Positions 2,265 through 59,872 of a stretch of 64,000 nucleotides of DNA are shown here, in pieces. Within the stretch, counting starts at the first letter, position 1. Each line of letters begins with the position of its first letter. The notes under the pieces are model-generated. The model made no database searches. It was given only the letters and a program-made list of their open reading frames with translations, and was not told the DNA's origin. Source of the DNA: Candidatus Omnitrophota bacterium (GTDB lineage: Bacteria > Omnitrophota > Gorgyraeia > Gygaellales > Profunditerraquicolaceae). The DNA lies in assembly GCA_041662125.1 (NCBI GenBank), contig JBAZTA010000005.1, positions 52,978 through 116,977 of the forward strand. The letters run 5' to 3'. The translations under genes and the position numbers were made by a program.

Positions 2265-3851
2265 TTGTTCATGCAAAGAAATATTCCAGCCAAAATAAAG
2301 ACAACTCTTCAAACAAAGATTACCCTGGTTATATTAGGTATTTTTTTATTTCTTGTGTTCCTTGAGGTTGGGTTGCGCACCGGTGGGAGTATACTAACGT
2401 TTGTGCAGGAATACGGGAACAGGCGGAGTATCAAAGAAAAAGGCGTTTATCGTATTTTGTGTTTGGGCGAATCTACTACTGCAAAGCAATACCCGCATCA
2501 TCTTGAAAAAATCTTAAATCAGCGCAAGGTTGGAGTGCGTTTCAGCGTCATAGATAAAGGCATTCCGGGAGCGGTCACTACAGTTATATTAAACCGGGTA
2601 GAATCTTACCTTGATGAATATCATCCTGATCTGGCGGTTGCGATGATGGGGATCAATGACGCAGGAAGCCATATCCCTTTTGAAGTAGGCACGGCTTCAA
2701 AAACAATGCTTTTCTTTAAGTCCTTGAGAATTTATAAACTGTTAAAGTTACTTTGGTTGCATATTTTGGTTAAAGCTCATGAGACAGGGTTTTATAAACT
2801 AAATGGATATAATCACTCTCCTGAAAAAGAGCAAGCTTATCTTACAGAGATTGACCTAAAAGATTTTACCGCCGATTCAGTTCTAACCCATGATTCCTTG
2901 AAGAAAGCCTTAGCAATAAACCCGCAGGATGATGACGCATACTCTGGATTAGGAGAACTTTGCCGCATTCAAGGGAGATTCCCTCAAGCTGAAGCGTTGT
3001 TCAGGAAAGCTCTTGAGATAAATCACAAAAACTATAAAGCACACGTTGGATTAGGATTAATATATCAAATTAATCGCGAGTTTCCTCAGTCAGAAGAATT
3101 ATTTAAAGAAGCTATCGACATCAAACCTGAAAATTTTAATGCATACGCTGGATTAGGGGCAACTTATCGCGCACAAGAAAAGCTTTATTTGGCTGAAGAG
3201 TTGTTTAAGAAAGCCATCGCCATCATCCCTGAATGTGATAATGCATACGTTGGATTAGGATGGATTTATGCGCTTCAACGTAAACCATCCCAGGCTGAAG
3301 AGTCTTTCAAGAAAGCTTTAGAGATAAATCCTGAAAATATTCATGCGTTCGTTAAGTTGGGAGAATTGTATTACTATCAAGGGCAATTGGCACAAGCTAT
3401 AGAGATATTCCATAAAGCCGCGGAAATAAAACCTAAAAACGAACGTGTACTAGGATCAATTGCATTATTATACGAAAAAACAGGTAAACAAGTACTGGCA
3501 AAAGAATATGCGGAAAAATTAAATAAATTAAGGCCGAAATATTATAAATCGGTTACCATTAACAACTATCGCAAGCTTAAAGAGATATTAGATAAAAGGA
3601 GGATAAGATTGGTTTGCGTGCAGTATCCTATGCGTAGCATCAGCCCATTAAAGAAAATATTTGAAGAAGAAAACGATGTTGTTTTTGTAGATAATGAGGC
3701 TGTATTTAAAGAAATGGGGAGAAAGGCTGAACTGAAGGAAATATTCTCGGATTTGTTTGCCGGCGATTTTGGCCATTGCACAAAAAAAGGTAACCAGCTT
3801 TTAAGCGAAAATATAGCAAATGTGATTTTAAAAGAAATATTTAACAAATAG
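2265..3851 (+). CDS. SGNH/GDSL-type hydrolase with an inserted TPR-repeat domain and N-terminal TM helix
   Basis: SGNH block I LCLGESTT (GDS-like), block III MMGINDAG (GxND), block V C-terminal GDFGHCT (DxxH). Between blocks III and V there are ~6 TPR-like repeats (AYSGLGELCRIQGRFPQAEALFRKALEINHKN..., A-x-x-GLG pattern). Paralog of 57223-58902. Confidence 0.7.
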   Translation: MFMQRNIPAKIKTTLQTKITLVILGIFLFLVFLEVGLRTGGSILTFVQEYGNRRSIKEKGVYRILCLGESTTAKQYPHHLEKILNQRKVGVRFSVIDKGIPGAVTTVILNRVESYLDEYHPDLAVAMMGINDAGSHIPFEVGTASKTMLFFKSLRIYKLLKLLWLHILVKAHETGFYKLNGYNHSPEKEQAYLTEIDLKDFTADSVLTHDSLKKALAINPQDDDAYSGLGELCRIQGRFPQAEALFRKALEINHKNYKAHVGLGLIYQINREFPQSEELFKEAIDIKPENFNAYAGLGATYRAQEKLYLAEELFKKAIAIIPECDNAYVGLGWIYALQRKPSQAEESFKKALEINPENIHAFVKLGELYYYQGQLAQAIEIFHKAAEIKPKNERVLGSIALLYEKTGKQVLAKEYAEKLNKLRPKYYKSVTINNYRKLKEILDKRRIRLVCVQYPMRSISPLKKIFEEENDVVFVDNEAVFKEMGRKAELKEIFSDLFAGDFGHCTKKGNQLLSENIANVILKEIFNK

Positions 3852-3857
3852 TAATTA

Positions 3858-5156
3858 TTGTTTTTTAAAAACCAGCTTATAATATTTCCTATGCATAAAC
3901 TTTTATACTTGCCAATAGTCAGAAAACAGCAGTGGCGCAGTGCTGACTATTTGCAGCGGTTGCAATCCACTTTATTGCAGGGGACTATTAAAACAGCATA
4001 CGATACAATTCCATTCTATAAAAAAAGGCTTGATACGGTTAGTTTTGATATTGCCAGGATCGGAGAAAAAGATTATTATAAAAAGGTCCCGGTTTTAAGC
4101 AAACAGGAAGTTAAAGAAGCTTATAGTGAAGGTTCTATTTTTAATAGTAAATATCTAAGGAAAAGTATATCCCGTACAACTTCCGGTTCATCCGGTTTCC
4201 CGCTAACAATTTATTATGATAAGAAAAGTTATGCTTATTCTGAAGCAATTTATGCCAGGGCGCTCTTGGAGCAAGGGGTGAAACTTACTGATAGGATAGC
4301 GTATTTCTGGTATGAACCGTTTAAAGAGCGCGGCTTTTGGGAGTATCTGGGATTATTTAAGAAAAGCGAAATTCTTTATACTCAATCGATAGATAAACAA
4401 TTGGAACAATTACAGAGGCTTAATCCTGATGTAATACACTGTTTTCCGAGCGCATTGTATGTTTTGTGCCGGCATATTAACAGGTTGGGTATTAAATTGA
4501 ACATCAGGCTCGTTATTACTCACGGTGAATTGCTTTTGGATAATTTCAGGAAAGAAATCGAAAATACATTTGGGGTAAAGATATTGGATCAATACGGTTC
4601 GAACGAATTTAACCGCATGGCCTGGCAGTGTAAGGAATACGGCAGTTATCATATAGATGCGGATAACATCTTTGTCGAATTCTTGGATAGAAATGATAAG
4701 GAAGTAAGCTGTGGAGAAAAAGGAAGGTTAGTTGTCACGCATCTTAATAACCGCATGATGCCGCTTATCAGATATGAAATGGGTGATTACGCGGTTAAAA
4801 AAGAAGGCTTGTGCCCCTGCGGGAGGATGTTGCCACTTTTAGAAAAGCTTGAAGGAAGAAAAGATGATTTTATTAAGCTTGCTAACGGGCAGATTTTATC
4901 TCCCCGGGCTGTTGGTGGGCTTCTTGAGCGTGTAAAATCATTAGAGAGGTATCATTTTATTCAATATCAGATAAATGGTTTTAGGATGGATATCATTCCG
5001 AACGAGTTATATAATGAAAAAGAGAAATCTTATACGCGTGGAATATTACTGGATATATTGGGAAAAGATGCGTTACTTGAAATTCGTGTTGTAAATGAGT
5101 TATCAAAATCAAGAACCGGAAAAATGCGGGCAATTGAATCGCGTTTGATGGGTTGA
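3858..5156 (+). CDS. Adenylate-forming enzyme, CapK/PaaK (phenylacetate-CoA ligase/F390 synthetase) family-like
   Basis: AMP-binding signature TSGSSGFPLTIYYD (T-S-G-S/T-S/T-G-x-P). Size of 432 aa is typical for CapK-like proteins of capsule loci. An alternative start at 3891 is possible. Confidence 0.65.
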   Translation: MFFKNQLIIFPMHKLLYLPIVRKQQWRSADYLQRLQSTLLQGTIKTAYDTIPFYKKRLDTVSFDIARIGEKDYYKKVPVLSKQEVKEAYSEGSIFNSKYLRKSISRTTSGSSGFPLTIYYDKKSYAYSEAIYARALLEQGVKLTDRIAYFWYEPFKERGFWEYLGLFKKSEILYTQSIDKQLEQLQRLNPDVIHCFPSALYVLCRHINRLGIKLNIRLVITHGELLLDNFRKEIENTFGVKILDQYGSNEFNRMAWQCKEYGSYHIDADNIFVEFLDRNDKEVSCGEKGRLVVTHLNNRMMPLIRYEMGDYAVKKEGLCPCGRMLPLLEKLEGRKDDFIKLANGQILSPRAVGGLLERVKSLERYHFIQYQINGFRMDIIPNELYNEKEKSYTRGILLDILGKDALLEIRVVNELSKSRTGKMRAIESRLMG

Positions 5157-5171: not shown

Positions 5172-6980
5172 TTGCCGCTGATGAAGATTATATTATTATC
5201 CCCACCGATCTTTCCTCCTAAAGAACCATATTTAGCTGTCCCTACGTTAACCGCTTTCTTGTCAAACCACGGGTTTAAAGACGTTATACAACGCGATATT
5301 AATCTGGAAACATATGATATTTTGCTCAGTAGTAAATACCTTTTGCATTGTCATCAGGCGAACAGCGAGGAATTAAGGAAATTGAGATGTAACATTGTTC
5401 CTGGGGAAGATTCCTTAAAGAAGTATAAGCTCTTAAAAACAGCTGTTCGATTCGCGCCTTATATTATTAAAAGGATTGATCGGGCCCGGGAGTATCTCAA
5501 GGCAGGCAATAAGCATAAGCGCGGTAATGTTTTTAATCTCAAGCGGCTACTGAGTTTTGAAATCCTTTCAGCAGGATTTGCCGTTATTAATGCCAGGTAT
5601 TTTCCGGCTTATATTTCATTCTCAAGTTTTAAAAACAGCTATTCTCTTGATTCTTCCCAAGGTATCTTAAAAGCTGTCGCGGACATTAAAGAAAACTTGT
5701 TTATTGAGCTGTTTCAGAAGTATATATGCCCGGGAATTATTAAGGAAAATCCTCAGCTTCTGGGCATTTCAATCAATGATAAGGAACAGGTAGTCCCGGG
5801 CCTTACCTTAGCCATGTTGCTGCATGAAGCAGGTTTGTATGTGGTTATCGGAGGGCATATATTTACTAAATACTTGCCTGTTATCCGGGAATACTTTCAG
5901 TTGTGTGATAGTTTTGTTATAGGGGGAGGTGAAAATGCGTTGGCAGCACTGTTAATAAAAATAAAAGGCAGCCAGGATTTCTTAGGTGTGCCTAACCTGG
6001 TATGGTATGATAAGATAAATAAGAAAATGATCATTAATAAAAGAGATGACCATAATACTTGTAATGCGTCTCTCACGCCTTCTTATGAAGGTTTGCCGGC
6101 GAAGTCTTACTTTTCTTTCTTTGATAATTCAATCAGGTTTCCTCTTGTGGTGGGCAAGGGATGTTATTGGAATAAGTGCGCATTTTGCGATATTTCCAGT
6201 GATACGGATTATGCGGCAAGGGATGTCTCTTTAATAATAAGCGATATCAATAAAATTATCGATTGCGATAAAGTAAACAGGTTTTTCTTTGTTATTTGTT
6301 CTTTGGAGCCGGAATTTGTGCGTAATTTGTCTAATGCTATACTTGCTCATGGATTGAAAATTGAGTGGGAAGGGTACGCGCGGTTTGAGAAGGAGTTTAA
6401 CCCTGATTTGTGCGGTTTAATGAAGCGTTCAGGCTGCAGGCGGCTTTTTATGGGGTTTGAGAGCGGTTCGCAAAGACTATTAGATCTGATGAATAAGGGG
6501 GTAGCAGTAAGCTGTATGGAAGATGTAATTTCTAATCTGTATCAGGCTGGTATTGCGGTTAATCTTTTTACGCTCTCAGGATTCCCGGGAGAATCCGATA
6601 ACGATGTTTTGGCTACAATTGAGTTTTTAACAAGAAATCGCAAAAGACTTGATTTAAGAAATTTCTATTTTGACAATGGGCAGTTTAGGTTAAACCGTAA
6701 CTGTAAAGGCCCGGGTTTGCAGCATATCTCGAAAGATGAGTTTGGTAATACGGGGATAGATGCGTTCGATTCAGGGCTTTGGCTCAGTGATAAAATATGT
6801 GGCCTATTGTGCCGCCTGGTTGAGCGTGAGTATTATCATTTTAAGGGCAGCCGCATTTTATGGCAGACTCCCCGCAGCGCGAATATATTGAAAAACGGTA
6901 TCGTTATTGCTGGAAAGCTTTTTCTGCACAGGACAGGTTTTAAGATCGTTCGATACCTTCGCAGTGCGATAGCCAAATAA
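5172..6980 (+). CDS. B12-binding (class B) radical SAM enzyme, noncanonical CX4CX2C cluster motif
   Basis: N-terminal Rossmann-like region typical of B12-binding domains. GKGCYWNKCAFCD tri-cysteine motif (spacing 4/2). GFESGSQRLLDLM motif typical of class B rSAM. Confidence 0.7.
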   Translation: MPLMKIILLSPPIFPPKEPYLAVPTLTAFLSNHGFKDVIQRDINLETYDILLSSKYLLHCHQANSEELRKLRCNIVPGEDSLKKYKLLKTAVRFAPYIIKRIDRAREYLKAGNKHKRGNVFNLKRLLSFEILSAGFAVINARYFPAYISFSSFKNSYSLDSSQGILKAVADIKENLFIELFQKYICPGIIKENPQLLGISINDKEQVVPGLTLAMLLHEAGLYVVIGGHIFTKYLPVIREYFQLCDSFVIGGGENALAALLIKIKGSQDFLGVPNLVWYDKINKKMIINKRDDHNTCNASLTPSYEGLPAKSYFSFFDNSIRFPLVVGKGCYWNKCAFCDISSDTDYAARDVSLIISDINKIIDCDKVNRFFFVICSLEPEFVRNLSNAILAHGLKIEWEGYARFEKEFNPDLCGLMKRSGCRRLFMGFESGSQRLLDLMNKGVAVSCMEDVISNLYQAGIAVNLFTLSGFPGESDNDVLATIEFLTRNRKRLDLRNFYFDNGQFRLNRNCKGPGLQHISKDEFGNTGIDAFDSGLWLSDKICGLLCRLVEREYYHFKGSRILWQTPRSANILKNGIVIAGKLFLHRTGFKIVRYLRSAIAK

Positions 6981-9467: not shown

Positions 9468-10415
9468 ATGAAAGCTAATGCGGGGAGAATGAATAATAGG
9501 GATTTTAGCGTGGGAATAATGGCTTTTAATGAAGAGAATGCTTTGCCTTTGTTATTCGACGATTTATTGCTGCAGAAGCTTGAGAAATTTTCCATGCGTG
9601 AGGTTATTGTCGTCGCCAGCGGCTGTACCGATAATACTCAGTTGATGGCCGAAGAAGCTAAACGTAAATATCCGAATGTTAAGTTGATTATACAGAGCCA
9701 AAGGGAAGGAAAGGCGTCTGCAGTTAAGTTGTTCCTTAAGGCGGCAGAGAGTGGTTTATTGGTGTTAGTGAGCGCGGATGTAAGGGTTTCTGAAGGTAGT
9801 TTAGAAAGGCTGCTTATTCCATTATTAGAAGATAGTGTGGGGATGACGGTAGGGCGCGCGATGCCGGTTAATTCTCAAGACAGCTTTATCGGCTTTAGCG
9901 TTAATTATCTCTGGCATATGCATCATCAAATGTCATTGGTGCGCCCGAAAGCATCTGAAATCCTGGCTATGAGAAATTGCGTAAAGCATATAGATATTCA
10001 AACGGCTGTTGATGATTCTTATCTTGAGGCAATGTTAAGTAAGCAGGGGTTGGCAATAAAATATGTTTCCGGGGCAGTCGTTTATAATAAAGGCCCTGAG
10101 ACTCTTGCTGAATTTTTTTGCCAGCGGGAAAGGATATACACTGGCCATTTGTGGCTGAGAAGCAAGCTTAATTATTCGGTTGTTTCCATAGATTATCATC
10201 TGCTTATTAAATTGCTCTTAGCTGATTTAAAAATAAGGCAAAAACATTTTTTTTGGAAGATAGGCGTAGTATTGCTGGAAATGACAGCGCGTATAAACGC
10301 AATAATCAAATTTTCTTTATTTTCCTATAACCCATTTGTCTGGAAATCGTTAAGAAGCACTAAAACAGCTATTTATTTCAATGATTGCGGCTTGCCTGAA
10401 AACAATAAAATTTAA
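9468..10415 (+). CDS. Family 2 glycosyltransferase
   Basis: GT2 N-terminal pattern FSVGIMAFNEENALPLLFDDLL, VIVVASGCTDNT, acidic SAD motif. Confidence 0.75.
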   Translation: MKANAGRMNNRDFSVGIMAFNEENALPLLFDDLLLQKLEKFSMREVIVVASGCTDNTQLMAEEAKRKYPNVKLIIQSQREGKASAVKLFLKAAESGLLVLVSADVRVSEGSLERLLIPLLEDSVGMTVGRAMPVNSQDSFIGFSVNYLWHMHHQMSLVRPKASEILAMRNCVKHIDIQTAVDDSYLEAMLSKQGLAIKYVSGAVVYNKGPETLAEFFCQRERIYTGHLWLRSKLNYSVVSIDYHLLIKLLLADLKIRQKHFFWKIGVVLLEMTARINAIIKFSLFSYNPFVWKSLRSTKTAIYFNDCGLPENNKI

Positions 10416-11436
10416 TTTCAAGAATAAACGCTTTTTAAGTCAAGCGCTGCCATTAAGCCTTACATTTAACCTTACTTCCCTATGCCCCTTAAAGTGCAAG
10501 ACATGCAATATATGGAAATCAGAGCCTCATGCCGAATTGTCTTTAGAACAGTACGAGAAAATTTTCGTTTCAATTAATACCCCTATTGAGTGGATCGTTA
10601 TAACCGGAGGAGAGCCGTTTTTAAGGGCGGATTTAGATAAGATTGTCGCCGGCATTATAAAATATCTTAAACCTAAGTTTATAAATATAGCCAGTTGTGG
10701 TTATTATCCGGAGCTCAGCGTTTTGAAAACACAAAATATCCTTTCTCTATCCGGCAATTGCAGAATAAAAGTTAATTTGTCCATTGACGGGATAGAAGGC
10801 CAGCATGACTATATAAGAGGCACAGACGGCAGTTATGTTAATGTGGTTAGGACTTTTAAGCTGCTGAAGGGATTAAAACACAAAAATCTTTCGCTTGGGA
10901 TAAACACTGTTATCTCCAAATATAATATAGGAAGTTTGCGTCAGCTCTCTGACAAAATCGCTCAGCTGTTACCTTCATCTCATTTCTTTGAATTTGCGCA
11001 AAAGAGGGAGGAACTAAAGAATTCAGGCATGGATTTCTTAGCATCAGAAGAAGCCAGCATCAACTGGTTAAAAAAAGAGGCATGCTTGAGCAAAAATATT
11101 AAAAATTCATTTATTGTAGATTTATTGAGAGCTGCTTATTATAAATACTTGTTGCTCATATTTCAGGGAAGGGCTATTCCTTTGGGTTGTTTTTCCGGGT
11201 ATGCTTTTGGGCATGTATCTCCGGAAGGCATGGTATATAATTGCTGTGTCAGGCAGGATCCTTTAGGGGATTTAAAAGAAGTAAATTACGATTTCAAGAA
11301 AATCTGGTTTTCTGATGTAAAAAAAAGTATATCTGAACAAATAAACCGGGAAAAGTGCAGCTGCAGTTCAGTAAGCAGTTTTTATATTAATTTGTTATGT
11401 AGTTTGGCAAGGATATATTCTCTCTTTCTCGCATAA
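10381..11436 (+). CDS. Radical SAM enzyme with C-terminal SPASM/twitch-like Cys-rich domain
   Basis: CPLKCKTCNIW (CX3CX2C), ITGGEPFLRAD (SAM-binding GGE motif). C-terminal cysteines (GCFSGY..., NCCVRQD, CSCSS). 35-nt overlap with the upstream GT2. Confidence 0.75.
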   Translation: MIAACLKTIKFNFKNKRFLSQALPLSLTFNLTSLCPLKCKTCNIWKSEPHAELSLEQYEKIFVSINTPIEWIVITGGEPFLRADLDKIVAGIIKYLKPKFINIASCGYYPELSVLKTQNILSLSGNCRIKVNLSIDGIEGQHDYIRGTDGSYVNVVRTFKLLKGLKHKNLSLGINTVISKYNIGSLRQLSDKIAQLLPSSHFFEFAQKREELKNSGMDFLASEEASINWLKKEACLSKNIKNSFIVDLLRAAYYKYLLLIFQGRAIPLGCFSGYAFGHVSPEGMVYNCCVRQDPLGDLKEVNYDFKKIWFSDVKKSISEQINREKCSCSSVSSFYINLLCSLARIYSLFLA

Positions 11437-14966: not shown

Positions 14967-16673
14967 ATGCCTGTATATATCCTGGGAATCGCGGTATATC
15001 AGCGGGATTCATCGGCGGCTTTATTAAAAGACGGTGAGTTGCTCTGTTGTTTTGAAGAGGACAAAGTAAAGGGGATAAAACAAAAGCGGTTGTTCCCGGA
15101 AAATGCCGTAAAATTAAGCCTTGAGTTTGCCGGAATATCTATTATGGATATTTCCTTTATCATGGTTAATCACAGCCCCGCTGAAGGTTTTTGCCCTGAA
15201 TATCTCCGCCATTTCATCAATCCGCGGTTATTTAAACATCTGTTAGACAGGGCAGTGTATTTCGGTTCATTCTATCAGCTTTTGAAAAACGATCTTACCC
15301 GGATCTTTCCTGCGGAAATAAAATGTATACTGCCGAAGATAAAATTCTTGAGCCATCATTTAGCGCACGCTGCGAGCTCATATTTCCTGTCCCCTTTTGA
15401 TGATGCTGCCATTTTTACGGCAGATGGTTGTGGCGAGAGTACTTCAGTCATGTACGCGAGAGCCAAAGGCCCGGTTATTACCAAGATAAAGGAACTAAAA
15501 TTTCCGTATTCTTTGGGCAGTTTATATTCAGCAATGACTGAATACCTGGGTTTTAAACCTAATTCTGATGAAGGTACGGTGATGGCGTTGGCATCGTATG
15601 GTGATGATTCCTTGTATAATAGTTTTAAAAAAATCATTTTTCTAAAAGAAAACGGCACTTTGGGTATCGATCCCGGTTATTTCAGCTTTTATAACGAAGC
15701 GGGGAGAAAATGGACGAAAAAACTTTGCCGCGAACTCGGGCCATGCCGCGCCAAAGACGGGATCATTACGAAGCAGCATATGAATATTGCCGGAGCCCTT
15801 CAGCATGAACTGGAAGATACGGTAATTTTAATGCTGCAGTATCTTAAGAATCAAACAGGTAGCGATAATCTTTGCCTTGCCGGAGGAGTTTTTCTTAATT
15901 GCACGCTGAATAGTATTATAAAGAAAAAAGGTATTTTCTCTCATGTGTTTATTCATCCCGCGGTTAATGATGCTGGCACTGCTTATGGAGCTGCTCTTTT
16001 TAAACATTATGAAATTAACGGGCTCGGTAAAAGAAATATTGAAAATGCCTGTTTTACCCCTTATTTGGGGACTGAATATGACGATAATGCTATTAAATCG
16101 GTTTTAGAGCGAAGCGAAGTAAATTTTAGCCTCAATAATAATGTGGTAAAAACCGGGGCGCGATTATTGGCTGAAGGAAAGATCATCGGCTGGTTTCAAG
16201 GCAGGTCAGAAACCGGGCCAAGAGCATTAGGAAACAGGAGCCTCTTGGCTAATCCTCTTCAGAAGGGCGTAAGGGACCATATAAATAGTAAGATAAAGAA
16301 CAGGGAATGGTTTAGGCCATTTGCTCCTTCGGTTTTGGCAGAATATGCTCACGATTACTTTGAAGGTAATTGTTCATCCGAATATATGTTATATTCTATA
16401 AAAGCCAAGGCTGATAAAATTGAACATGTCGGCGAGTGCTGCCATGTCGATGGCACCTGCCGCCTGCAAACGGTAACCAGGGAAAGTAATAATCTTTTTT
16501 ACGCACTTATAAAAGAATTCAATGCTTTAACCGGCTTGCCGATGCTGTTAAATACATCTCTCAATCTTAGAGGTAAACCAATAGTCAGTTCTCCTCAGCA
16601 GGCTGTTGAAATGTTTAAGCGGGTGCCTTTAGATGCGCTTATTATAGGTAATTACGTATTGATGAAGCGTTAA
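14967..16673 (+). CDS. Carbamoyltransferase, NodU/CmcH/TobZ family
   Basis: N-terminus MPVYILGIAVYQRDSSAALLKDGELLCCFEEDK matches the family consensus (ILG...HD/RDS-AAAL..DG...A..EER). Length 568 aa. GGGGAG RBS 6 nt upstream. Confidence 0.85.
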   Translation: MPVYILGIAVYQRDSSAALLKDGELLCCFEEDKVKGIKQKRLFPENAVKLSLEFAGISIMDISFIMVNHSPAEGFCPEYLRHFINPRLFKHLLDRAVYFGSFYQLLKNDLTRIFPAEIKCILPKIKFLSHHLAHAASSYFLSPFDDAAIFTADGCGESTSVMYARAKGPVITKIKELKFPYSLGSLYSAMTEYLGFKPNSDEGTVMALASYGDDSLYNSFKKIIFLKENGTLGIDPGYFSFYNEAGRKWTKKLCRELGPCRAKDGIITKQHMNIAGALQHELEDTVILMLQYLKNQTGSDNLCLAGGVFLNCTLNSIIKKKGIFSHVFIHPAVNDAGTAYGAALFKHYEINGLGKRNIENACFTPYLGTEYDDNAIKSVLERSEVNFSLNNNVVKTGARLLAEGKIIGWFQGRSETGPRALGNRSLLANPLQKGVRDHINSKIKNREWFRPFAPSVLAEYAHDYFEGNCSSEYMLYSIKAKADKIEHVGECCHVDGTCRLQTVTRESNNLFYALIKEFNALTGLPMLLNTSLNLRGKPIVSSPQQAVEMFKRVPLDALIIGNYVLMKR

Positions 16674-19700: not shown

Positions 19701-20245
19701 ATCCTTTCGATAGGATCATTTTGTATCAGCTTAATAGAGAAAGCGAAGTTCTATTATGGGATCTGAGGCTTCCCCCTGTAGATAAAAATATATATTCATC
19801 TCAACACAGAAACTTTACGTTCTCAGAATATTATTTTATTTCAGAAGATGCCCTTTATATGCCCTATTCAATAATGAGGCAGTTTTATATTCGGAAAGTA
19901 GATTTAAAGGCCGGGAAAGATAAGGGCAGCACAATTATCCCCGGAATAAAGGGCCAGCTTTATAATTTTTATGGAGGATATGCCGATAAAAATAGAATTG
20001 GATTAATAATATCGAATAATTGTAATCCTTATGATCCAGATGACTTTAAATTGTGCTTTACGAGTGCTTCGATCATTTATACACACTATTTAGAAATGTC
20101 TAAAGACGGGAATATAGGTAAATTAGAGCATTTTCCTGAATCAAATGTGGATGGATTTGAAAAAGTCACCGGCTGTAAAACCAATAATTGCTTTATCTAT
20201 ACGGTGCTGGGGAATATCCTTACCGTGGACCGATTGTCAAACTGA
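16703..20245 (+). CDS. Large secreted protein with PQQ-like beta-propeller repeats
   Basis: Signal peptide (MRFNSVFLIVLIFTIPCCSFAS). Recurring G-x-[LIV]-x-W motifs (GQLRWSLG, GVVLWKCSLG, GIILWSNYIG, GIVEWIRKYD, GQVIWSISD) typical of PQQ/BamB-like propellers. 1180 aa. Confidence 0.55.
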   Translation: MRFNSVFLIVLIFTIPCCSFASLEDAEQIEAMEININNKDNLASLKGLLDNDSDIINYFKVREKLFSIPFDTLSALSGQYKSEDSFSRLLRHVLSQREKSGLFVLDEDILINNTPLLNGSPFYPDSKKPWLISSLSPEADHLYLTNLKLKYTPLDLKCISGSWWAKDDILKSPLAELVKYNNCNYESLLPVEDTAGPSECSWKYSLKKDKISPFLVNLAEVRNWVKIYEGSRVKPHVFRDSVFIRNSSRLFCLDMKTGQLRWSLGNFDGKEYELYQVFDPPYLNYLANDFILEEGIVYADFRGNFTAIDVKNASSGVVLWKCSLGEYRMCVKPVLCKGVIVAGLINSRGELWFCGFSKEKGIILWSNYIGTSAYAGSLCALSISSPGRVIIGTNHGILFSLDPDKGIVEWIRKYDRKTFDLLLYWQKGFYSQSFKEEGMLAFDTEFLEYSNGVIIYKPLESDYVYLLEAGSGKLLNKILIDPENYYVLSVKPGKMILLEKPDEKDKEYRIKVIDIKSGMVTYVQKLNSGKLLGVIYFQDDRIALKINSKIHILKISETSRGLEFYREYGGFAAEYWLLSLYGNNVFLSDMENLLSVSLTVNKEKEVLSLNKNAVNNSELICAGLKQAITHNAPAAAIKVLTENAHWLRENGFSSELLGILQDERNALGLPQWDAFVKFCAHNFGNMKITYRDISISFNNFLTAIGLFVERKPSNMPLENKGVSRLKDKYQVSGEQLFMLPVKNIKGKVPDFYLLLNNDQLICVSEAGKIIWARSVFYCPRSRIIDKADKRTGRMYIDSIEAYKYENVVIVNDHVNILALDISSGQVIWSISDQADIFSHEGQYYSSEFKSLYTPYYAHKEFVEKTMLLLCVYGDDIAIVRGKSISIVDPKTGFCRQSSDIPVSGAIQALSDNKFLFLLSYHLDKLIVLDKQLHVVKIHDLGFMQKAFPKKMVFIQDFVALHVIDKIHLIDPREGLKYTIDTQGNAFESIENYNGRLLVIYPFDRIILYQLNRESEVLLWDLRLPPVDKNIYSSQHRNFTFSEYYFISEDALYMPYSIMRQFYIRKVDLKAGKDKGSTIIPGIKGQLYNFYGGYADKNRIGLIISNNCNPYDPDDFKLCFTSASIIYTHYLEMSKDGNIGKLEHFPESNVDGFEKVTGCKTNNCFIYTVLGNILTVDRLSN

Positions 20246-20246
20246 T

Positions 20247-21269
20247 ATGAAAAGTGCCTCTATGAAATTAAAAATAATATTTTTTATGGTTTTGGTAAAA
20301 TTCTTTTATGGTTCAATGAATTTTTCAGCGAACGCTCAAGATATCCCAAATATTATCGTTATAACCATTAGCGGAGTTCGTAATCGCGATACTATTGACA
20401 GCCCTCAACACGAATATATCCCGAAATTATGGAATGAATTATTGCCTGAAGGTACGCTTTATACAAACTTGGTCAATACTAATTATGGTTTCCATATGCC
20501 TATTGTCAATGCTGTCAATACCGGGTATTCGTATCATTATTTCGATTGGGATTCTGCCCTCAAGGCGCCCACAATTGCCCAGTATGTGCGTAAAAAATAC
20601 AATCTCGCCGAGAATAAAGCTTGGGTTGTCGGTGTTTTTTCTATGGCTAATTGCGGATTAATAACTCATGAGCTTGGGGAAGATACTTTCCCCGCAAGTT
20701 TAATTACTGTTCCCGGAGAGTTTTCCGGTTGTCTTGAGCCGATATTGTCTTCTCAGGACCTGTTTTTCTTTAGGGAGTACCGCGCGTTACGTCAAAGAAA
20801 AATAACCGGCACTTTCCCTCAATGGGATATTGCCAGTATACAGTTTAAAATTTTGATGAAAATATTGTATGAATTTAAGCCTAAATTTGTTCATTATGTT
20901 ATGAGTAATCCGGAAATCGCGCATGCCGATTCTTACGGCAGGTATTTATTGTCGATTGAGAAGGCCGATCAGCAGATATATGAAATATGGAATACTCTAA
21001 CGAGCGACAAGTTTTATAAAGGGAATACGTATTTATTTGTCTGTGTTGATAGCACCAGGGAAAAGTATTATAAGCATCATAATGCTGATTTTCTCGGGGG
21101 CGAACCTGTTTGGCTGTATGTTTTCGGCCCTGACGTGAAAAAAGGAGAGCGTATAGGCAGAAAAATCTATCATGCTGATATGTTCGCGACGTTCGCGCGT
21201 ATTTTTAAACTGAATGTTGCTTCTGAAGGCAGGGTACTTTACGACAGCTTTATTCCTCATGATCGTTAA
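20247..21269 (+). CDS. Secreted hypothetical protein
   Basis: Signal-peptide-like N-terminus MKSASMKLKIIFFMVLVKFFYGSMNFSANAQ. ATG at 20247 chosen rather than the overlapping 20145 start. No sulfatase C/S-x-P-x-R motif. Confidence 0.45.
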   Translation: MKSASMKLKIIFFMVLVKFFYGSMNFSANAQDIPNIIVITISGVRNRDTIDSPQHEYIPKLWNELLPEGTLYTNLVNTNYGFHMPIVNAVNTGYSYHYFDWDSALKAPTIAQYVRKKYNLAENKAWVVGVFSMANCGLITHELGEDTFPASLITVPGEFSGCLEPILSSQDLFFFREYRALRQRKITGTFPQWDIASIQFKILMKILYEFKPKFVHYVMSNPEIAHADSYGRYLLSIEKADQQIYEIWNTLTSDKFYKGNTYLFVCVDSTREKYYKHHNADFLGGEPVWLYVFGPDVKKGERIGRKIYHADMFATFARIFKLNVASEGRVLYDSFIPHDR

Positions 21270-54102: not shown

Positions 54103-55092
54103 ATGGACGCTCGGATATGTAAAAAATGCGTACTACCGGAATTTAAGCCTGACATATGGCTTAATCAGGACGGGGTCTGTAATATCTGCGTCGATTTCCA
54201 GGAACATAAAGCTTCAGGAAAATCCCTGCCGCCGCTTGAATCGGAATTTACTAAACTATTGCTTAAGTTCAGGGGGAAGAATAAATATGATTGCCTGGTG
54301 ATGTGTAGCGGCGGAAAAGACAGCACCATAAGCCTGTATTACATGAAGAAAAAGTACCATCTGAATGTCCTGGCATTTACTTTTGATCATGGTTTTGAGA
54401 ATGACGAGGCTTTGGAGAATATACGAAACGCCGTTGATATCCTTGGAGTCGAATGGTTATATTTTAAGTCTGATTTTATGAAAGACGTTTTCCGCCGTAT
54501 GATAGAAACAAATACCAGCGCGCCGTTATGCCATGTCTGCGCGATCTGGTATCTGCAGCTCACTTATGATGTTGCCGCGCGCTACCGTATCCCGCTGGTT
54601 GTCGCCGGCTGGACAAAAGGGCAATCAACGGAATATGGAGAATTGGGAACGGAATACACCGCGATGTCTAAAGCCACACAGGTTTTTATCCGGGAGTATT
54701 TAAGGGTATTGCCACAGTATAAAGATTTCCCCCTCAGCATTAAAGAAGTCCTGCAGATATCCCGGAGAAAGTTTCGTATAACTTCTGTTTCTCCTCACTG
54801 GTTCCTGCGCTATGAGCCTGAAGAAATCATGCAAACATTGCAAAAAGAGCTGCGCTGGAAGGCGCCTCTCATGAGTTATCCTAAGGATTCGACCAATTGT
54901 ATCATGAACTTTGCCAGTGTCTATCAGACTATGCGGCATTTCGGGTATACTCATTATCATGTTGAAATGAGCAAACTTATAAGAAAGAACGAAATGACCA
55001 GGCAGGAAGCTTTAAAGCTTTTAGCGATCGATTTTGATAAAGCCTATTGTGATTCACTGCTGAGTAAGATCGGATGCTGTATTGCACAATAA
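54103..55092 (+). CDS. N-acetyl-sugar amidotransferase-like PP-loop ATPase (WbuX/LPS biosynthesis family-like)
   Basis: N-terminal zinc-ribbon cysteines (CKKCVLPE...GVCNIC) followed by the PP-loop LVMCSGGKDST. Confidence 0.6.
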   Translation: MDARICKKCVLPEFKPDIWLNQDGVCNICVDFQEHKASGKSLPPLESEFTKLLLKFRGKNKYDCLVMCSGGKDSTISLYYMKKKYHLNVLAFTFDHGFENDEALENIRNAVDILGVEWLYFKSDFMKDVFRRMIETNTSAPLCHVCAIWYLQLTYDVAARYRIPLVVAGWTKGQSTEYGELGTEYTAMSKATQVFIREYLRVLPQYKDFPLSIKEVLQISRRKFRITSVSPHWFLRYEPEEIMQTLQKELRWKAPLMSYPKDSTNCIMNFASVYQTMRHFGYTHYHVEMSKLIRKNEMTRQEALKLLAIDFDKAYCDSLLSKIGCCIAQ

Positions 55093-55114: not shown

Positions 55115-55339
55115 ATGGAGTTTAAGAAGAAGCTAAAGGAGTTTGTCGGCATAATCCAAAAGGTAATCATAACGTTTCTTTTGTTTTTTTTGTACCTTTT
55201 TGCTTTTGGGGCCATGTTTTTATTCATGAAAGCCTTTAGAATCAACTTAGGTTGCTCCGGGCGATCAGGCGCCGCTTCTTTTTGGGAAAAAGCCAAAGGC
55301 TATTGCAGCGGCATGGATGAAAGTATGAGGGGGTCTTAG
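55115..55339 (+). CDS. Small hydrophobic protein upstream of the carbamoyltransferase (hypothetical)
   Basis: MEFKKKLKEFVGIIQKVIITFLLFFLYLFAFGAMFLFMKAF; one TM helix. The ORF-track start at 55082 is TTG; ATG at 55115 preferred. Confidence 0.35.
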   Translation: MEFKKKLKEFVGIIQKVIITFLLFFLYLFAFGAMFLFMKAFRINLGCSGRSGAASFWEKAKGYCSGMDESMRGS

Positions 55340-55344: not shown

Positions 55345-55506
55345 ATGAAGAAAATAGCCTATATTTTTAAGGAAATGTTTTATATGATCCGCCTGCATAA
55401 ATTATTTTTTATCGCACCACTCCTGTTTGTCCTGGCGTTATTAGCTATACTCGTTTATTATGTCGGGCCAACTGTCATTATGTCGTTCATTTACGCGGGT
55501 ATCTGA
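55345..55506 (+). CDS. Small membrane protein (53 aa, below ORF-track cutoff), hypothetical
   Basis: ATG at 55345, translation MKKIAYIFKEMFYMIRLHKLFFIAPLLFVLALLAILVYYVGPTVIMSFIYAGI, GAGGGGG upstream. Small TM proteins of this kind commonly accompany NodU/CmcH-type carbamoyltransferases (recollection, not searched). Confidence 0.3.
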   Translation: MKKIAYIFKEMFYMIRLHKLFFIAPLLFVLALLAILVYYVGPTVIMSFIYAGI

Positions 55507-55540: not shown

Positions 55541-57226
55541 ATGAAGGTCCTTGGTGTATCTTGTTTTTACCACGATTCAGCGGCATGCTTGATATCAGAC
55601 GGAAAGATCGTCGCGGCCGCTCAGGAAGAACGCTTCAACCGGCGTAAAAACTCGCCTGATTTTCCTATCAACGCGATCAATTATTGCCTTCAGCAGGACA
55701 GCGCGTCCGTTTATGATATTGATTACATCGGATTTTATGAAAAGCCTTTCTTGAAATTTTCCCGCGTTATTGTAAGCCATCTGCAATCCTTTCCTTTTTC
55801 TTTGCGCAATTTTATCGATACTGTCCCTCATTGGCTGGCTGACCGCCTTATTATGCCCCTTGTTTTCAAACGTGAATTAGGGTTTGAGGGGAAGGTTTTG
55901 TTTATTCCTCATCATATGTCTCATGCGGCAAGCGCTTTTTTTTCCTCTGGATTTAATGAGGCTGCTATCTTGACTGTAGATGGCGTGGGAGAATGGGCGT
56001 CGGTAACCTGCGGGGTGGGCAAAGGCAATCAAATCACGATCAATAAAGAATTGCGTTTTCCTCATTCCCTGGGACTTTTATATACGGCAGTGACGACGTT
56101 CCTTGGTTTTCAAGCGTTGGAAGGAGAAGGGACCGTTATGGGATTAGCGGCCTTGGGAAAACCGGCGTATGTGGATAAATTTAAATCCATCATTTCTCTT
56201 AAACAAGACGGTAGTTTTCATCTGGATATGCGTTATTTCGGGTTCTTTAACGAAGGCCGCATGATGTACACTCAAAGGTTTGTGCGGGCATTCGGCAGTC
56301 CCCGCTTGCCGGGTGGAAAGTTAGAAGAGCGGCATTGTGATATTGCCTGTAGCCTGCAGGCGGTTACTGAAGAGGCGCTTGTCAATCTAGCCTGCGGCCT
56401 TTACCATGATACCGGAGTTGACAGCTTATGCCTGGCAGGAGGGGTATGTTTGAATTGTGTGGCAAACCAGAAGATCAAAGAAAAGACGCCTTTTAAAAGG
56501 ATTTTTATTCAACCTGCTGCTGGCGATAGCGGCGGGGCGTTAGGCGCGGCTGCCTATATTTATTTTAACCTTCTTAACAACCAGCCGGACAACCTGATGG
56601 TAGACGCTTACCTTGGGCCTGAATTCAGCGCCGCGCAGATAAAAAGGGTTTTAGTCAATAATGCAGTTGATTTTAAGGAATTTGAGGAAGCTTCGTTATG
56701 TAAATATATCGCGGCAAAGATTTATGAGAGTAAGATCATCGGCTGGTTCCAGGGCCGGATGGAGTTTGGCCCCCGGGCGTTGGGTAACCGTTCCATCCTG
56801 GCTAATCCTTGTAATCCTGACATGAAAGAATTGCTGAATAAGAAAGTCAAGGATCGAGAGCCATTCCGGCCGTACGCGCCGCTGGTGCTGGAAGAAAAAG
56901 CCGCGGATTATTTCCAAATGAGCGGACCGTCTTCGTTTATGTTATTGGCGCCACAGGTGAGAAAAGATAAGGTTGCGGTTATCCCGGCGGTTACGCATTA
57001 CGATGGTTCCGCCCGGGTCCAGACAGTGAATAAAAATGGTAACCCGAAATTGTGGCAGTTGGTTAAAGAATTTGAAAATCTGACCGGGGTGCCGGTTATC
57101 ATCAATACATCGTTTAATCTGCGGGGGCAACCGATTGTCTGCAGTCCTGAAGATGCGCTCGGAAGTTTTCAAAGTAGCGCGATGGATATCTTGGTCTTAG
57201 GAAATTTCGTCATAGAAAAGTCATGA
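55541..57226 (+). CDS. Carbamoyltransferase, NodU/CmcH/TobZ family (second copy)
   Basis: MKVLGVSCFYHDSAACLISDGKIVAAAQEERFNRRKN. Near-canonical family N-terminus. 561 aa. Confidence 0.85.
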   Translation: MKVLGVSCFYHDSAACLISDGKIVAAAQEERFNRRKNSPDFPINAINYCLQQDSASVYDIDYIGFYEKPFLKFSRVIVSHLQSFPFSLRNFIDTVPHWLADRLIMPLVFKRELGFEGKVLFIPHHMSHAASAFFSSGFNEAAILTVDGVGEWASVTCGVGKGNQITINKELRFPHSLGLLYTAVTTFLGFQALEGEGTVMGLAALGKPAYVDKFKSIISLKQDGSFHLDMRYFGFFNEGRMMYTQRFVRAFGSPRLPGGKLEERHCDIACSLQAVTEEALVNLACGLYHDTGVDSLCLAGGVCLNCVANQKIKEKTPFKRIFIQPAAGDSGGALGAAAYIYFNLLNNQPDNLMVDAYLGPEFSAAQIKRVLVNNAVDFKEFEEASLCKYIAAKIYESKIIGWFQGRMEFGPRALGNRSILANPCNPDMKELLNKKVKDREPFRPYAPLVLEEKAADYFQMSGPSSFMLLAPQVRKDKVAVIPAVTHYDGSARVQTVNKNGNPKLWQLVKEFENLTGVPVIINTSFNLRGQPIVCSPEDALGSFQSSAMDILVLGNFVIEKS

Positions 57227-58902
57227 AAGCATTCAGACAGCGCTTGATCGTCATCTTGATTGGCATAGCGGTAACTCTTTTTGTGTTAGAGGCCGGATTG
57301 CGCATACTCGGATCGTTCTACGCAAAGCGCGCTTCTCGAAAATCAAAAGCTGATAGTTGCCAATATACGGTTTTATGCGTGGGGGATTCTTTTGTCTTCG
57401 GATTTGGGGTGCCTTTTGAGCAGTCTTTTCCTGTTCAACTGCAGGTTTTATTGGATAATAAAAATCCGGAGAGGAGAATTAAGGTTGTCAACCGGGGGGT
57501 CGGCGCGCAGACAACGACACTGCTTTTGCAAGGTTTGCCGTACGAGATCAGTACGATTGATCCCGACCTGGTCATTGTATTAAGCGGGGGCGCGAATCAA
57601 TGGAATTCCACGGGTTATTATACTTACCTTAAAGGAAACACAGTTAAGGCAATGCTTCAGGATTCTTTCAGTAGAAGCGCAATAGTTAAGTTGGTTAAGC
57701 TTTTATCTTTTAATATAAGAAATAAAATGAAGGAAATTACATGTCAAAGGGATAATTTTGATATGCAATTCGCTGGTGGTGCGTTTGGAAAAGAAAGGGA
57801 GCCGATGCGTGATACCTTGTATAATCTTAATCTTGGAATGCGCTATATTGATGAAAGGGATTATGCCAGGGCCAGGGATTTGTTCCAAAGGATGATCGCA
57901 AGGGATCCTCAGGATACGGCGGGATATTTTGGCATGGGGACTGTTCTTACCATCCAGCAGTTTTATACGCAAGCAACAGGATTTTTCCAGCAAGCAATCG
58001 AGTTGGATCCTGCTGATGCCAGGAGTTATGGAGGGCTGGCTTTGTGTTACAAAGAAAATCGGGATTATCAAAACGCCTTGGCATGGTTTAAGAAAGCTCT
58101 CAGATTATCTCCTGAGGACAGCCGGATCTATTGGAATGTAGGCAGTATTTATCTGGAGCAGCGTGAATTTGCCGAAGCGGAAAAATGGTTTTCTGAGGCG
58201 ATTACCCGTAATCCGCGTGATAGCCGCGCTTATTATTATATGGGGAAATTTTATAAAGATCAGGGGAAATATGTTGAGGCATTGCAATGGTTTGATAAAG
58301 GTTTGAGAGTGGATCCTCAGGATTGGTCGAACTATTACGGGTTTGCCTGCGTTTATTCTGAGAGGAATGAGTTCGGGCAGGCAGTACCCTGGATAAAACA
58401 AGGGATCAAAGCCGCTCCTGCTTCTTTAGAGAACCTTAATTATAGGTTAATCGTCTATGTCTTCCGGCAGGTTATGCCATATGACGAAGTGGTTACATTT
58501 ATCCGCGGAATCATGCAAAATGCGGGGGTGCCGCGCGATGTGTGGGAGTTCTATAATGCAAGAGATATCGGTCAAAAAGAGGGTGCATGGCTTGAACATG
58601 ATTTAGATAGTATTGCTCGAATATGTAAAGAGAAAAATATTCCGGTCATGTTTCAGAATTATCCCTTTGGTTTTGATTTCGCCTCTTTAGTCCTTCAAAA
58701 GGTCGCCGAAAAGAATTCGATTCCTTTTGTGGATAACCGCCGGGTTTTTGATGCGTTGTGGGAAAAGGGCGAAAAACGGGGGGATTATTCTGTCCCTGAC
58801 GGCCATTGTAATGGAAAAGGCTATGGGGTTATCGCGAATAATATTTATGAGAAGTTAATAGAGCTTGGATGGTTTGATCCCGGCAAAAAAATAGGGAACT
58901 AA
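57223..58902 (+). CDS. SGNH/GDSL-type hydrolase with inserted TPR-repeat domain (paralog of 2265-3851)
   Basis: Block I VLCVGDSFVFGFG, block II NRGVGAQTT, block III LSGGANQWNS, block V C-terminal VPDGHCNG (DxxH). TPR repeats between. Start overlaps the carbamoyltransferase stop (ATGA). Confidence 0.7.
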   Translation: MKAFRQRLIVILIGIAVTLFVLEAGLRILGSFYAKRASRKSKADSCQYTVLCVGDSFVFGFGVPFEQSFPVQLQVLLDNKNPERRIKVVNRGVGAQTTTLLLQGLPYEISTIDPDLVIVLSGGANQWNSTGYYTYLKGNTVKAMLQDSFSRSAIVKLVKLLSFNIRNKMKEITCQRDNFDMQFAGGAFGKEREPMRDTLYNLNLGMRYIDERDYARARDLFQRMIARDPQDTAGYFGMGTVLTIQQFYTQATGFFQQAIELDPADARSYGGLALCYKENRDYQNALAWFKKALRLSPEDSRIYWNVGSIYLEQREFAEAEKWFSEAITRNPRDSRAYYYMGKFYKDQGKYVEALQWFDKGLRVDPQDWSNYYGFACVYSERNEFGQAVPWIKQGIKAAPASLENLNYRLIVYVFRQVMPYDEVVTFIRGIMQNAGVPRDVWEFYNARDIGQKEGAWLEHDLDSIARICKEKNIPVMFQNYPFGFDFASLVLQKVAEKNSIPFVDNRRVFDALWEKGEKRGDYSVPDGHCNGKGYGVIANNIYEKLIELGWFDPGKKIGN

Positions 58903-58906: not shown

Positions 58907-59872
58907 ATGTCCGCAGTTCTGGTAAGTATTATCATTGTCACCGCAGGCAAAGAAGGCCATATTCACAAGTGCCTTTCTTCGATCGTAAAACAATCCTTTC
59001 GTAATACAGAGACAATAGTTATCGATAATTCTCTCAATAGTGCTTTAGGCTATTTTATTGCAAGAGAGTTTCCCTTCTCTCGAGTATTGAAAAGTGAAAA
59101 AAACCTGTTTTATTGCGCGGCTTTAAACAAGGGGATAGCCGAAAGCAGGGGAGAGTTCGTTCTCTGTCTCAATGATGATGTGGTTTTAGATGAGCGTTTT
59201 GTTGAGGAAGCGCTGCGGGGTTTTAGCGTGGGCCCTGGTATCGGGATGGTCAGCGGTAAGATCTTGCGTCCAGATAAGAAAACGATAGATAGCGCGGGGT
59301 TGTTTTTGAGCCTCTGGAGGACACCGCTTGAGCGCGGGTATGGGAGAATCGATAGGGGCCAGTTTGAGCGCCAGGGTTATGTTTTTGGGGTCAACGGCGC
59401 AGTAGCGTTTTATAGGAAAGAGATGCTCAATTCCCTGCTTATAAAAGGATTGCCCGGAGGGCAGGAATATTTTGACACAGACCTTGGATTTTTCTATGAA
59501 GACCTGGATATTGCCTGGAGGGCGCAAAAGAGCGGATGGAAGGGGTATTATATACCTGCTGCGATCGCCTATCATGTGCGGGGCGCTACTGCTCGCCAGA
59601 GCAAAGGCATTAATAAAAGGTTTGCCCGGTTTTATCTTAACGATGAATTAAACTTTAATTTAATAAGGAACAGGTATCTGGTGATCATTAAGAATGATAA
59701 GCTCCTTACTTTTTTAGCTTGCCTGTTCTTTATGATTCTTTTTGATCTTGTGACGTTTGCGTATTTAATCATCTTCCGGCCAACTGTATTAAAATTCTTC
59801 TTCAATTCTGCCATACCTTTTCGATCAGCCCTGCGTAAAAGAAAACTCATCAAGCAACTTAAACGCATATAA
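58907..59872 (+). CDS. Family 2 glycosyltransferase
   Basis: VSIIIVTAGKEGHIHKCLSSIVKQSFRNTETIVIDNS, NDD motif, DLDIAWRAQKSGWKGYYIP region typical of the rhamnosyltransferase-like GT2 subgroup. Confidence 0.75.
   Translation: MSAVLVSIIIVTAGKEGHIHKCLSSIVKQSFRNTETIVIDNSLNSALGYFIAREFPFSRVLKSEKNLFYCAALNKGIAESRGEFVLCLNDDVVLDERFVEEALRGFSVGPGIGMVSGKILRPDKKTIDSAGLFLSLWRTPLERGYGRIDRGQFERQGYVFGVNGAVAFYRKEMLNSLLIKGLPGGQEYFDTDLGFFYEDLDIAWRAQKSGWKGYYIPAAIAYHVRGATARQSKGINKRFARFYLNDELNFNLIRNRYLVIIKNDKLLTFLACLFFMILFDLVTFAYLIIFRPTVLKFFFNSAIPFRSALRKRKLIKQLKRI

Follow-up and report, generated by a model that had tools for sequence, protein, structure and literature searches.

The genome of a Candidatus Omnitrophota bacterium (assembly GCA_041662125.1) contains, on contig JBAZTA010000005.1, a 64,000-nucleotide stretch (positions 52,978 to 116,977; hereafter the window) in which two genes, A1 and A2, encode proteins combining an N-terminal transmembrane (TM) helix, the sequence blocks of an SGNH hydrolase and an array of tetratricopeptide repeats (TPRs). 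The same window holds two carbamoyltransferases (CTs) of the NodU/CmcH family, CT1 and CT2, and an earlier note on this DNA had proposed that each SGNH-TPR gene is partnered with one of them. The locus raises the question of what these composite proteins are and whether they act together with the carbamoyltransferases. The analysis presented here indicates that A1 and A2 are probably signal-anchored, split SGNH-TPR enzymes of glycan tailoring, with A2 linked to the pathway of CT2 and A1 uncoupled from CT1.

Both open reading frames (ORFs) are present on the forward strand at the positions originally described, 2265-3851 for A1 and 57223-58902 for A2. The start of A1 probably moves to the ATG at 2271, which is favored over the TTG at 2265 because homologues begin with MQ(K/R)N; A1 then spans 2271..3851 and encodes 526 aa. 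A2 (57223..58902, + strand) encodes 559 aa. Searches with tblastn found just these two SGNH-TPR copies in the window, a third match corresponding to the TPR region of a CHAT-domain protein.

An intact SGNH domain interrupted by a TPR array

The A1 and A2 proteins align from end to end with 25% identity (E = 4e-47). Their likeness is not driven by the repeats, because the match survives deletion of the TPRs (26% identity across 268 aa, encompassing both halves, E = 1e-19). To compare the family with proteins of known structure, we built a TPR-deleted profile from eight family members by joining their N and C parts (271 positions). This profile matches solved single-domain SGNH esterases in two colinear stretches, one in the N half and one in the C half. 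In 9otv_A, for example, residues 3-76 and 86-177 are matched (E = 5.8e-12), including the GDS at block I and the terminal Asp/His block. Chance or TPR-driven similarity was considered as an explanation and rejected on the strength of these two comparisons.

Structure predictions place the elements in the same order. The AlphaFold2 model of A1, based on a 94-sequence alignment (predicted local distance difference test (pLDDT) score of 87.9, predicted template modeling (pTM) score of 0.80), runs from a long N-terminal helix through strands at residues 60-66, 91-95 and 121-125 into paired helices at 207-420, followed by strands at 446-450 and 470-473 and a final helix. The A2 model, obtained from a shallower alignment (pLDDT 78.7, pTM 0.50), presents beta1-3, 6-7 TPR helix pairs, beta4-5 and a final helix. 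A Foldseek search of the A1 model against the PDB matched consensus TPR proteins and the TPR domain of O-GlcNAc transferase (OGT) at probability 1.00; it returned TPR proteins only.

On the A1 gene, the features map to a signal-anchor helix at 2319..2378 (approximately aa 17-36, as delimited by hydropathy, charge counts and the model helix at 13-55), an SGNH N-half at 2439..2783 (~aa 57-171, comprising blocks I-III and the amphipathic helix after them), a TPR array at 2877..3530 (~aa 203-420, six 34-residue repeats and a capping helix pair) and an SGNH C-half at 3549..3848 (~aa 427-526, comprising beta4 LVCVQYP, beta5 FVDN, block V and the terminal helix), all on the + strand. In A2, the TM helix lies at ~aa 8-26, the SGNH N-half at ~46-170, the TPRs at ~198-433 and the SGNH C-half at ~447-547. 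The layout put forward in the earlier note, in which a TM helix is followed by SGNH blocks I-III, the TPRs and the remainder of the SGNH domain, is hence borne out in both proteins, with 6-7 TPRs.

Domain databases capture this architecture in part. Pfam recognizes only the N-terminal part of Lipase_GDSL_2 in A1 and A2, with 50.8 bits for A2 (above the cut-off) and 29.1 bits for A1 (below the cut-off of 32.9), together with TPRs (TPR_1/TPR_2, E = 1e-30 to 1e-36 in both proteins; 3.6e-36 for TPR_1 in A1). No family-specific model was found in NCBIfam, where the LA_2486 SGNH model matches A2 weakly at aa 491-545, within the C-half, and generic TPR equivalogs match far under their cut-offs.

Together, these results show that the SGNH catalytic alpha/beta domain is intact yet interrupted, the TPRs entering after block III and one helix, and before beta4. 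Across the family, the insert ranges from 36 to 409 aa (median 230), equivalent to 1-10 TPR units, between an N half (~170 aa) and a C half (~100 aa) of constant length. Since the number of repeats varies, the TPR part is better read as an arm, and the variation argues against a precisely fitted lid.

Conservation of the catalytic residues

Residue conservation was assessed on 150 diverse representatives of the family, using A1 numbering. Block I reads CLGES68TT in A1 and VGDS56 in A2 and aligns to the GDS of the solved esterases, with Ser68 present in 148 of the 150 sequences. The block II glycine, Gly97 (G92 in A2), is found in 147, and block III, which in A1 reads G127-I-N129-D130, keeps Asn129 in 139 and Asp130 in 143; the A2 equivalent, G-G-A-N125, has its Asn one residue off the register of GxND. 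Block V, aligned to the DxxH of 9otv_A, reads D499-F-G-H502-C in A1. His502 is present in 149 sequences and Asp499 in 126, an Asn taking its place in 11 more. The DxxH motif that had been assigned to both copies therefore applies to A1, whereas A2 and most of its subfamily carry a variant with a one-residue spacer, D526-G-H528 (DxH). The resulting family consensus is CLGESTT / MMGIND / VCVQYP / FVDN / GDFGHC.

As judged from this conservation of the nucleophile (Ser), the oxyanion residues (Gly and Asn) and the Asp/His pair, the A1- and A2-type proteins are most likely active enzymes.

Several cysteines are conserved next to these motifs. Cys64 of A1 (2460-2462), four residues before the catalytic Ser, is present in 150/150 sequences, Cys503 (3777-3779), directly after the catalytic His, in 143/150, and Cys449 (3615-3617), within beta4, in 133/150. 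These residues may form a disulfide or have an active-site role.

A putative signal anchor with a conserved membrane-end motif

At their N-terminus, the family sequences carry a K/R-rich tail and then one hydrophobic helix, whose median hydropathy is 2.6 over 19 residues. The mean number of K and R residues is 3.4 before the helix versus 2.0 after it, and 105 of the 150 sequences are more positive before the helix. Because the K/R-rich N-terminus precedes a single hydrophobic helix, the helix is predicted to be a signal anchor with N-in/C-out orientation, in which case the TPRs and the catalytic domain would lie on the outer side of the cytoplasmic membrane.

The end of the anchor helix bears a near-invariant L-E-x-G-L-R-x-x-G motif (A1 aa 30-39, ~2358-2387; A2 aa 21-30, ~57283-57312), in which a charged Glu lies within the hydrophobic span and both the Glu and the Arg are nearly invariant. 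The LExGLR motif, which is shared by a shorter SGNH family encoded in the neighborhood of these genes (L065_4615), may constitute an intramembrane contact site.

A large protein family expanded in the Omnitrophota

The TPR-deleted forms of A1 and A2 served as queries in an exhaustive HMMER search of representatives clustered at 50% identity. There were 17,577 matching proteins with E <= 1e-3, of which 1,740 reached E <= 1e-30. Each of the best 150 matches consists of two stretches, and in 146 cases the protein measures 400-680 aa. Within the main 'GESTT / GIND / GDFGHC' subfamily, A1 is a typical member, with 38-56% identity to the family representatives. A2 belongs to a smaller and divergent 'GDSF / GxANxW / DGHCN' subfamily, ~25% identical to the main one.

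A genome scan using one genome per species yielded at least 494 confirmed genomic matches, nearly all of them in Omnitrophota metagenome-assembled genomes (MAGs), with some labeled as Elusimicrobia or other groups. Tandem copies are frequent, with 144 copies distributed over 76 loci and up to 7 copies per fetched locus (up to ~22 kb); arrays of four to seven SGNH-TPR genes can be seen in the Omnitrophota MAG loci L025, L067, L020 and L047. In the MAG PLLJ01 (fen_1321), the fetched loci by themselves account for at least 17 full-length copies. A1 and A2 are, accordingly, distant paralogues within a large, unnamed and Omnitrophota-expanded family, and not a local oddity.

These proteins are labeled 'tetratricopeptide repeat protein' by NCBI and JGI. 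The reason for this label is that the SGNH domain is divided, so that Pfam detects its first half alone. A word-indexed protein search with the N-terminal 180 aa of A2 alone returned no matches, and a search with full-length A2 returned mostly generic TPR proteins, with about ten true relatives. A literature search found no published description of the split SGNH-TPR architecture or of DUF5989, a small protein family that recurs near A2-type genes (see below).

A TPR-deleted profile of the A2 type also retrieves TPR-less relatives of ~430-470 aa in the Planctomycetota and other groups (E 1e-30 to 1e-66). The Planctomycetota proteins share the same N and C halves, with a long insert between them in which Pfam detects no TPR, and are likewise membrane-anchored; they are annotated as 'SGNH/GDSL hydrolase family protein' or 'lysophospholipase L1-like esterase'. 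On three Planctomycetota-type contigs (L159, L161 and L163), TPR-less relatives of 431-467 aa lie in a conserved gene string that includes a DUF1573 gene.

A2 belongs to a recurrent carbamoyltransferase gene set

CT1 (14967..16673, + strand) and CT2 (55541..57226, + strand) are both full-length proteins covered end to end by Pfam Carbam_trans_N and Carbam_trans_C (E 1e-56 to 1e-77; 1.5e-77 and 2.7e-71 for CT2), and are 40% identical to each other. Their scores fall below the NodU equivalog cut-off (~175 bits versus 1000), which identifies them as family members and not as NodU orthologues.

The reported 4-nt ATGA overlap between the CT2 stop and the A2 start is present in the sequence. The two genes form part of a string on the + strand that begins with a WbuX-like PP-loop 'N-acetyl sugar amidotransferase' (54103..55092; TIGR03573, E = 3.5e-50, 171 bits, short of the cut-off of 203). 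This is followed by a 74-aa single-TM ORF (55115..55339), identified from its translation, and a 53-aa membrane ORF matching DUF5989 (55345..55506; Pfam PF19451, 27.5 bits versus a cut-off of 27). CT2 and A2 come next, and the string is closed by a family 2 glycosyltransferase (GT2; 58907..59872; Pfam Glycos_transf_2) located 4 nt past A2. The 74-aa ORF has no Pfam or NCBIfam match, but its position upstream of DUF5989 is conserved, with genes of 72-74 aa at the same position in loci L001, L003 and L164.

The string is syntenic in a related MAG (locus L001), with GT2 at the same position. Another MAG (locus L003) presents the order 74-aa ORF, DUF5989, SGNH, SGNH, CT, again with a 4-nt overlap. 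The A2-type genes P0270 and P0260 both lie directly downstream of a carbamoyltransferase. The set as a whole recurs in many independent contigs, with shuffled order and one or two SGNH genes.

To quantify these associations, we performed two neighborhood surveys, one on 77 metagenome loci with A2-type genes and the other on 77 genome loci with A1-type genes. Among the A2-type loci, 29 of 77 contain a carbamoyltransferase, which is CT2-like in 28. The carbamoyltransferase is directly upstream on the same strand in 11-16 of the 47 loci with enough upstream sequence (gap of -18 to +199 nt), or roughly a quarter to a third, and within 5 kb in 12 of the 27 loci with 5 kb on both sides. Of the other members of the set, the WbuX-like gene accompanies CT2-like genes in 10 loci from genomes and 28 from metagenomes, and the DUF5989 ORF adjoins them in 12 and 27 loci, respectively. 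The CT2 module is also present in 12 of the 77 A1-type genome loci, in most of which an SGNH-TPR gene abuts it. The carbamoyltransferases that accompany family members in other loci share 44-80% identity with CT2 (60-80% in most cases) and at most 42% with CT1.

This conserved gene neighborhood shows that A2 acts in the same pathway as the set formed by the WbuX-like enzyme, the 74-aa protein, the DUF5989 protein and CT2.

A1 is not coupled to CT1

According to the earlier note, the window contains a duplicated module in which each SGNH-TPR gene works with its own carbamoyltransferase, so that a single glycan would go through one round of carbamoylation and esterase editing per pair. The 64-kb window does contain two genes of each type, and the CT2/A2 overlap supports pairing, but several lines of evidence make this model very improbable. 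The alignment and co-occurrence checks suggested with it were run, and the identities of 25% between A1 and A2 and 40% between CT1 and CT2, with SGNH genes from different subfamilies, do not support duplication of a two-gene module. A distance of 11 kb, with ten genes, lies between A1 and CT1, and a housekeeping H+-pyrophosphatase gene (28145-30244) divides the window into distinct gene clusters. CT1 lacks the small DUF5989 and 74-aa partner ORFs. None of the surveyed loci has a CT1-like gene adjacent to a family member, and every carbamoyltransferase that accompanies such a gene elsewhere is CT2-like. A carbamoyltransferase lies directly upstream of just 4 of 105 A1-type genes, and within 5 kb of 8 of 52. 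Functional pairing is hence supported for A2 and CT2, as a recurrent tight or overlapping set, and fails for A1 and CT1. Because there is no duplicated module and A1 is not coupled to CT1, the suggestion of two rounds of this chemistry has no basis.

The few A1-type copies adjacent to a carbamoyltransferase were examined as a possible single clade, and this was rejected: they are most closely related to copies without such a neighbor or to tandem paralogues from the same locus.

A1 sits in a different operon. It is preceded by a gene for a DUF748/AsmA-like protein and followed, 7 nt downstream, by a gene for a PaaK/CapK-like adenylating enzyme (PaaK/F390-synthetase-like, 3858..5156, + strand; NCBIfam PaaK-family matches of ~1e-36, under their cut-offs), and the operon includes radical S-adenosylmethionine (SAM) enzymes. 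The DUF748-A1-PaaK-like order is kept at an 80%-identical orthologous locus (L005). Unbiased clustering of the recurrent neighbors in the 77 A1-type loci identified radical SAM/SPASM proteins in 17 loci, B12-radical SAM proteins in 16, carbamoyltransferases in 12, WbuX-like proteins in 10 and a shorter TM-anchored SGNH protein in 7.

Comparison with characterized SGNH enzymes

The family shares blocks I, II, III and V with solved SGNH esterases, such as the lysophospholipase L1-like 9otv, the acetyl xylan esterases 4oap and 3w7v and the Escherichia coli TAP (1ivn). The models also predict the beta-alpha-beta order with five strands, and the profile spans the whole ~190-220-aa domain of these enzymes. 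The family differs from them in the ~230-aa TPR array that interrupts the catalytic domain, in the predicted N-terminal signal anchor with its conserved LExGLR, in the GES-TT form of block I (main subfamily) and the DxH form of block V (A2 subfamily), and in the invariant Cys residues before block I and after the His.

The Neisseria O-acetyl-peptidoglycan esterase Ape1 (PDB 4k3u family) offers a parallel in overall organization. Ape1 consists of an SGNH domain plus a beta-sandwich carbohydrate-binding module, and thus also unites in one chain an SGNH domain and a non-catalytic module; it works on an extracytoplasmic envelope polymer, as A1 and A2 are predicted to do. The C half of our profile matches 4k3u weakly (E = 0.015). 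The accessory module differs in kind, being a TPR solenoid of varying length in the A1/A2 family and a beta-sandwich in Ape1.

Proposed function and alternative readings

In the reading that we favor, A1- and A2-type enzymes would act on exported envelope glycans or glycoconjugates, either taking off O-linked acyl-type substituents or transferring them, with the TPR arm keeping hold of the polymer or of a partner protein. A2 would edit the sugar carbamoylated by CT2. Its most likely role, in which we have modest confidence given the gene context, is that of an esterase clearing or trimming O-acyl or O-carbamoyl groups of the CT2 substrate, in the way proposed for SxtL next to SxtI, SxtJ and SxtK of the saxitoxin cluster.

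The saxitoxin SxtI-SxtJ-SxtK-SxtL block resembles the CT2 set in gene composition, the only level at which the two were compared: both combine a carbamoyltransferase, two short ORFs and an SGNH/GDSL-like gene. The saxitoxin block makes an alkaloid, whereas the CT2 set sits in envelope-glycan biosynthesis, and SxtJ has ~134 aa versus 74 aa for the ORF in the CT2 set. In the published proposal, carbamoyl transfer is carried out by SxtI together with SxtJ and SxtK, and the GDSL-like SxtL, whose function was predicted and never tested, may split off carbamoyl groups (PMC2679770, PMC2885083). The sxt genes share their origin with non-toxin cyanobacterial homologues (PMC2684587).

Several points weigh against the proposed function. 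The sequence does not separate an esterase from an acyltransferase activity. Furthermore, carbamates are poor substrates of serine hydrolases and often inhibit them, which makes a decarbamoylase role chemically uncertain. A periplasmic catalytic domain shares no compartment with a cytoplasmic carbamoyltransferase, and if the SGNH domain is indeed periplasmic, its coupling to the carbamoyltransferase must therefore be sequential. The charge bias is ambiguous in A2 itself, with 3 K/R before the helix versus 5 after it. Most family members are not near a carbamoyltransferase, and the TPR-less Planctomycetota relatives are coupled not to a carbamoyltransferase but to an upstream gene of the sulfatase/phosphodiesterase family (4-nt overlap in two of the three contigs mentioned above and a 9-nt gap in L163). 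The partner enzyme is therefore lineage-specific.

The main rival to an esterase is an extracytoplasmic transferase. The SGNH protein would act as an O-acyltransferase or carbamoyl-transferase, comparable to PatB, AlgX/AlgJ or the C-terminal SGNH domain of OatA, and would place on the exported glycan a group brought across the membrane, with the 74-aa and DUF5989 proteins taking part in delivery. SGNH acyltransferases with the same triad are established, and the signal-anchor topology, with the catalytic domain predicted outside, would suit such a role. So would the tight and conserved linkage with a carbamoyltransferase and two tiny membrane proteins, and the invariant Glu and Arg of the LExGLR motif, which suggest an intramembrane contact. 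However, no Pfam match to an MBOAT or AT3 (Acyl_transf_3) membrane acyltransferase was found in the window ORFs or in the recurrent neighbor clusters, the 53- and 74-aa proteins, with one or two helices, are unlikely conduits, and the canonical block II Gly and block III Asn are kept, as in hydrolases. On balance, we consider a transferase unlikely.

It is less probable still that the substrates are peptides or proteins, such as glycoproteins or radical-SAM-modified peptides, bound by the TPRs in the way that O-GlcNAc transferase binds polypeptides. The commonest neighbors of A1-type genes are radical SAM/SPASM and B12-radical SAM proteins, the cluster-1 representative weakly matches peptide-maturase models, the TPR array is nearest to those of OGT and consensus TPRs, and PMT_2-type glycosyltransferases are encoded nearby. 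Nevertheless, the surroundings are mostly of the glycan type, including GT2, GT4, WecA-like and Wzy_C proteins, an ABC-2 transporter, an epimerase and CysD/CysN, and no precursor peptide genes were identified, although no systematic search for them was made.

A more speculative scheme, to which we assign little probability, would turn the CT2 module into a trans-membrane carbamoylation system. A group activated in the cytoplasm would be passed through the membrane, and the SGNH Ser, carbamoylated as a covalent intermediate, would then donate the carbamoyl group to a glycan that has already been exported, analogous to O-acetylation by MBOAT/AT3-plus-SGNH systems. If so, the TPR arm would hold the polymer, and the expansion of paralogues in the Omnitrophota would supply acceptor specificities.

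Finally, the proteins might be conceived as TPR scaffolds of an envelope or secretion machine with a degenerate, non-catalytic SGNH part, given that TPR arrays are common scaffolds in polysaccharide export, that PgaA, BcsC and PilW models match weakly and that the database name mentions only the repeats, but this is very unlikely in view of the conservation of the Ser, Gly, Asn, Asp and His in 84-99% of the 150 diverse representatives and the existence of relatives almost without TPRs that keep both SGNH halves.

Other genes of the window

Beyond the genes discussed above, the 64 kb contain at least eleven radical SAM genes (5172-6980, 10381-11436, 21214-23771, 37350-47271), several of them with SPASM or B12-binding domains and one (37350-39272) fused to a GT2 domain. 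For a glycan region this is an unusually high content of radical SAM genes, and enzymes of these types are also the most frequent neighbors of SGNH-TPR genes elsewhere. The ORFs at 20145-21269, 21214-22380 and 22302-23771 overlap by 56 and 79 nt, and the listed starts in this region (20145-23771) are probably too far upstream.

Genes for sulfate activation, encoding CysD-like (PAPS_reduct) and CysN-like (EF-Tu GTPase) proteins, lie inside the glycan cluster at 48103-50165. The CysD/CysN pair recurs near an A2-type gene in locus L165, beside sulfatase-family genes. More generally, sulfatase-family and CysD/CysN genes recur near A2-type genes and are also present in this window, which hints at a sulfated glycan. 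Immediately downstream, the ORFs at 50172-51374 and 51420-52235 match the N-terminal (1-117) and C-terminal (163-322) parts of one Phosphodiest/alkaline-phosphatase-superfamily model, and may represent a split gene, a frameshifted gene or an assembly error.

The GT2 gene that closes the A2 string is followed by a sigma-70 gene and an ORF of 236 aa that matches no family, in the same order as in the related MAG locus L001. After them, a gene at 61419-63623 encodes a CHAT-domain (caspase-like) protein with a C-terminal TPR array.

Significance for the Omnitrophota and for the SGNH family

The enzyme class and the general role proposed here are unsurprising; what is new is the insertion of a TPR array into signal-anchored SGNH enzymes that form an Omnitrophota-expanded family. 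The analysis corrects the annotation of at least 1,700 sequence clusters, whose members are described here as SGNH enzymes, intact and membrane-anchored, into which a TPR arm is inserted. The linkage of the A2 subfamily to the CT/DUF5989 module, in turn, gives a testable context for DUF5989 and for the SxtJ-, SxtK- and SxtL-type proteins found beside carbamoyltransferases. Single Omnitrophota genomes harbor a dozen or more copies of these genes beside radical SAM-rich glycan loci, and both the copy number and the loci point to an unusually elaborate tailoring of envelope glycans in a phylum of ultra-small, possibly host-dependent bacteria.

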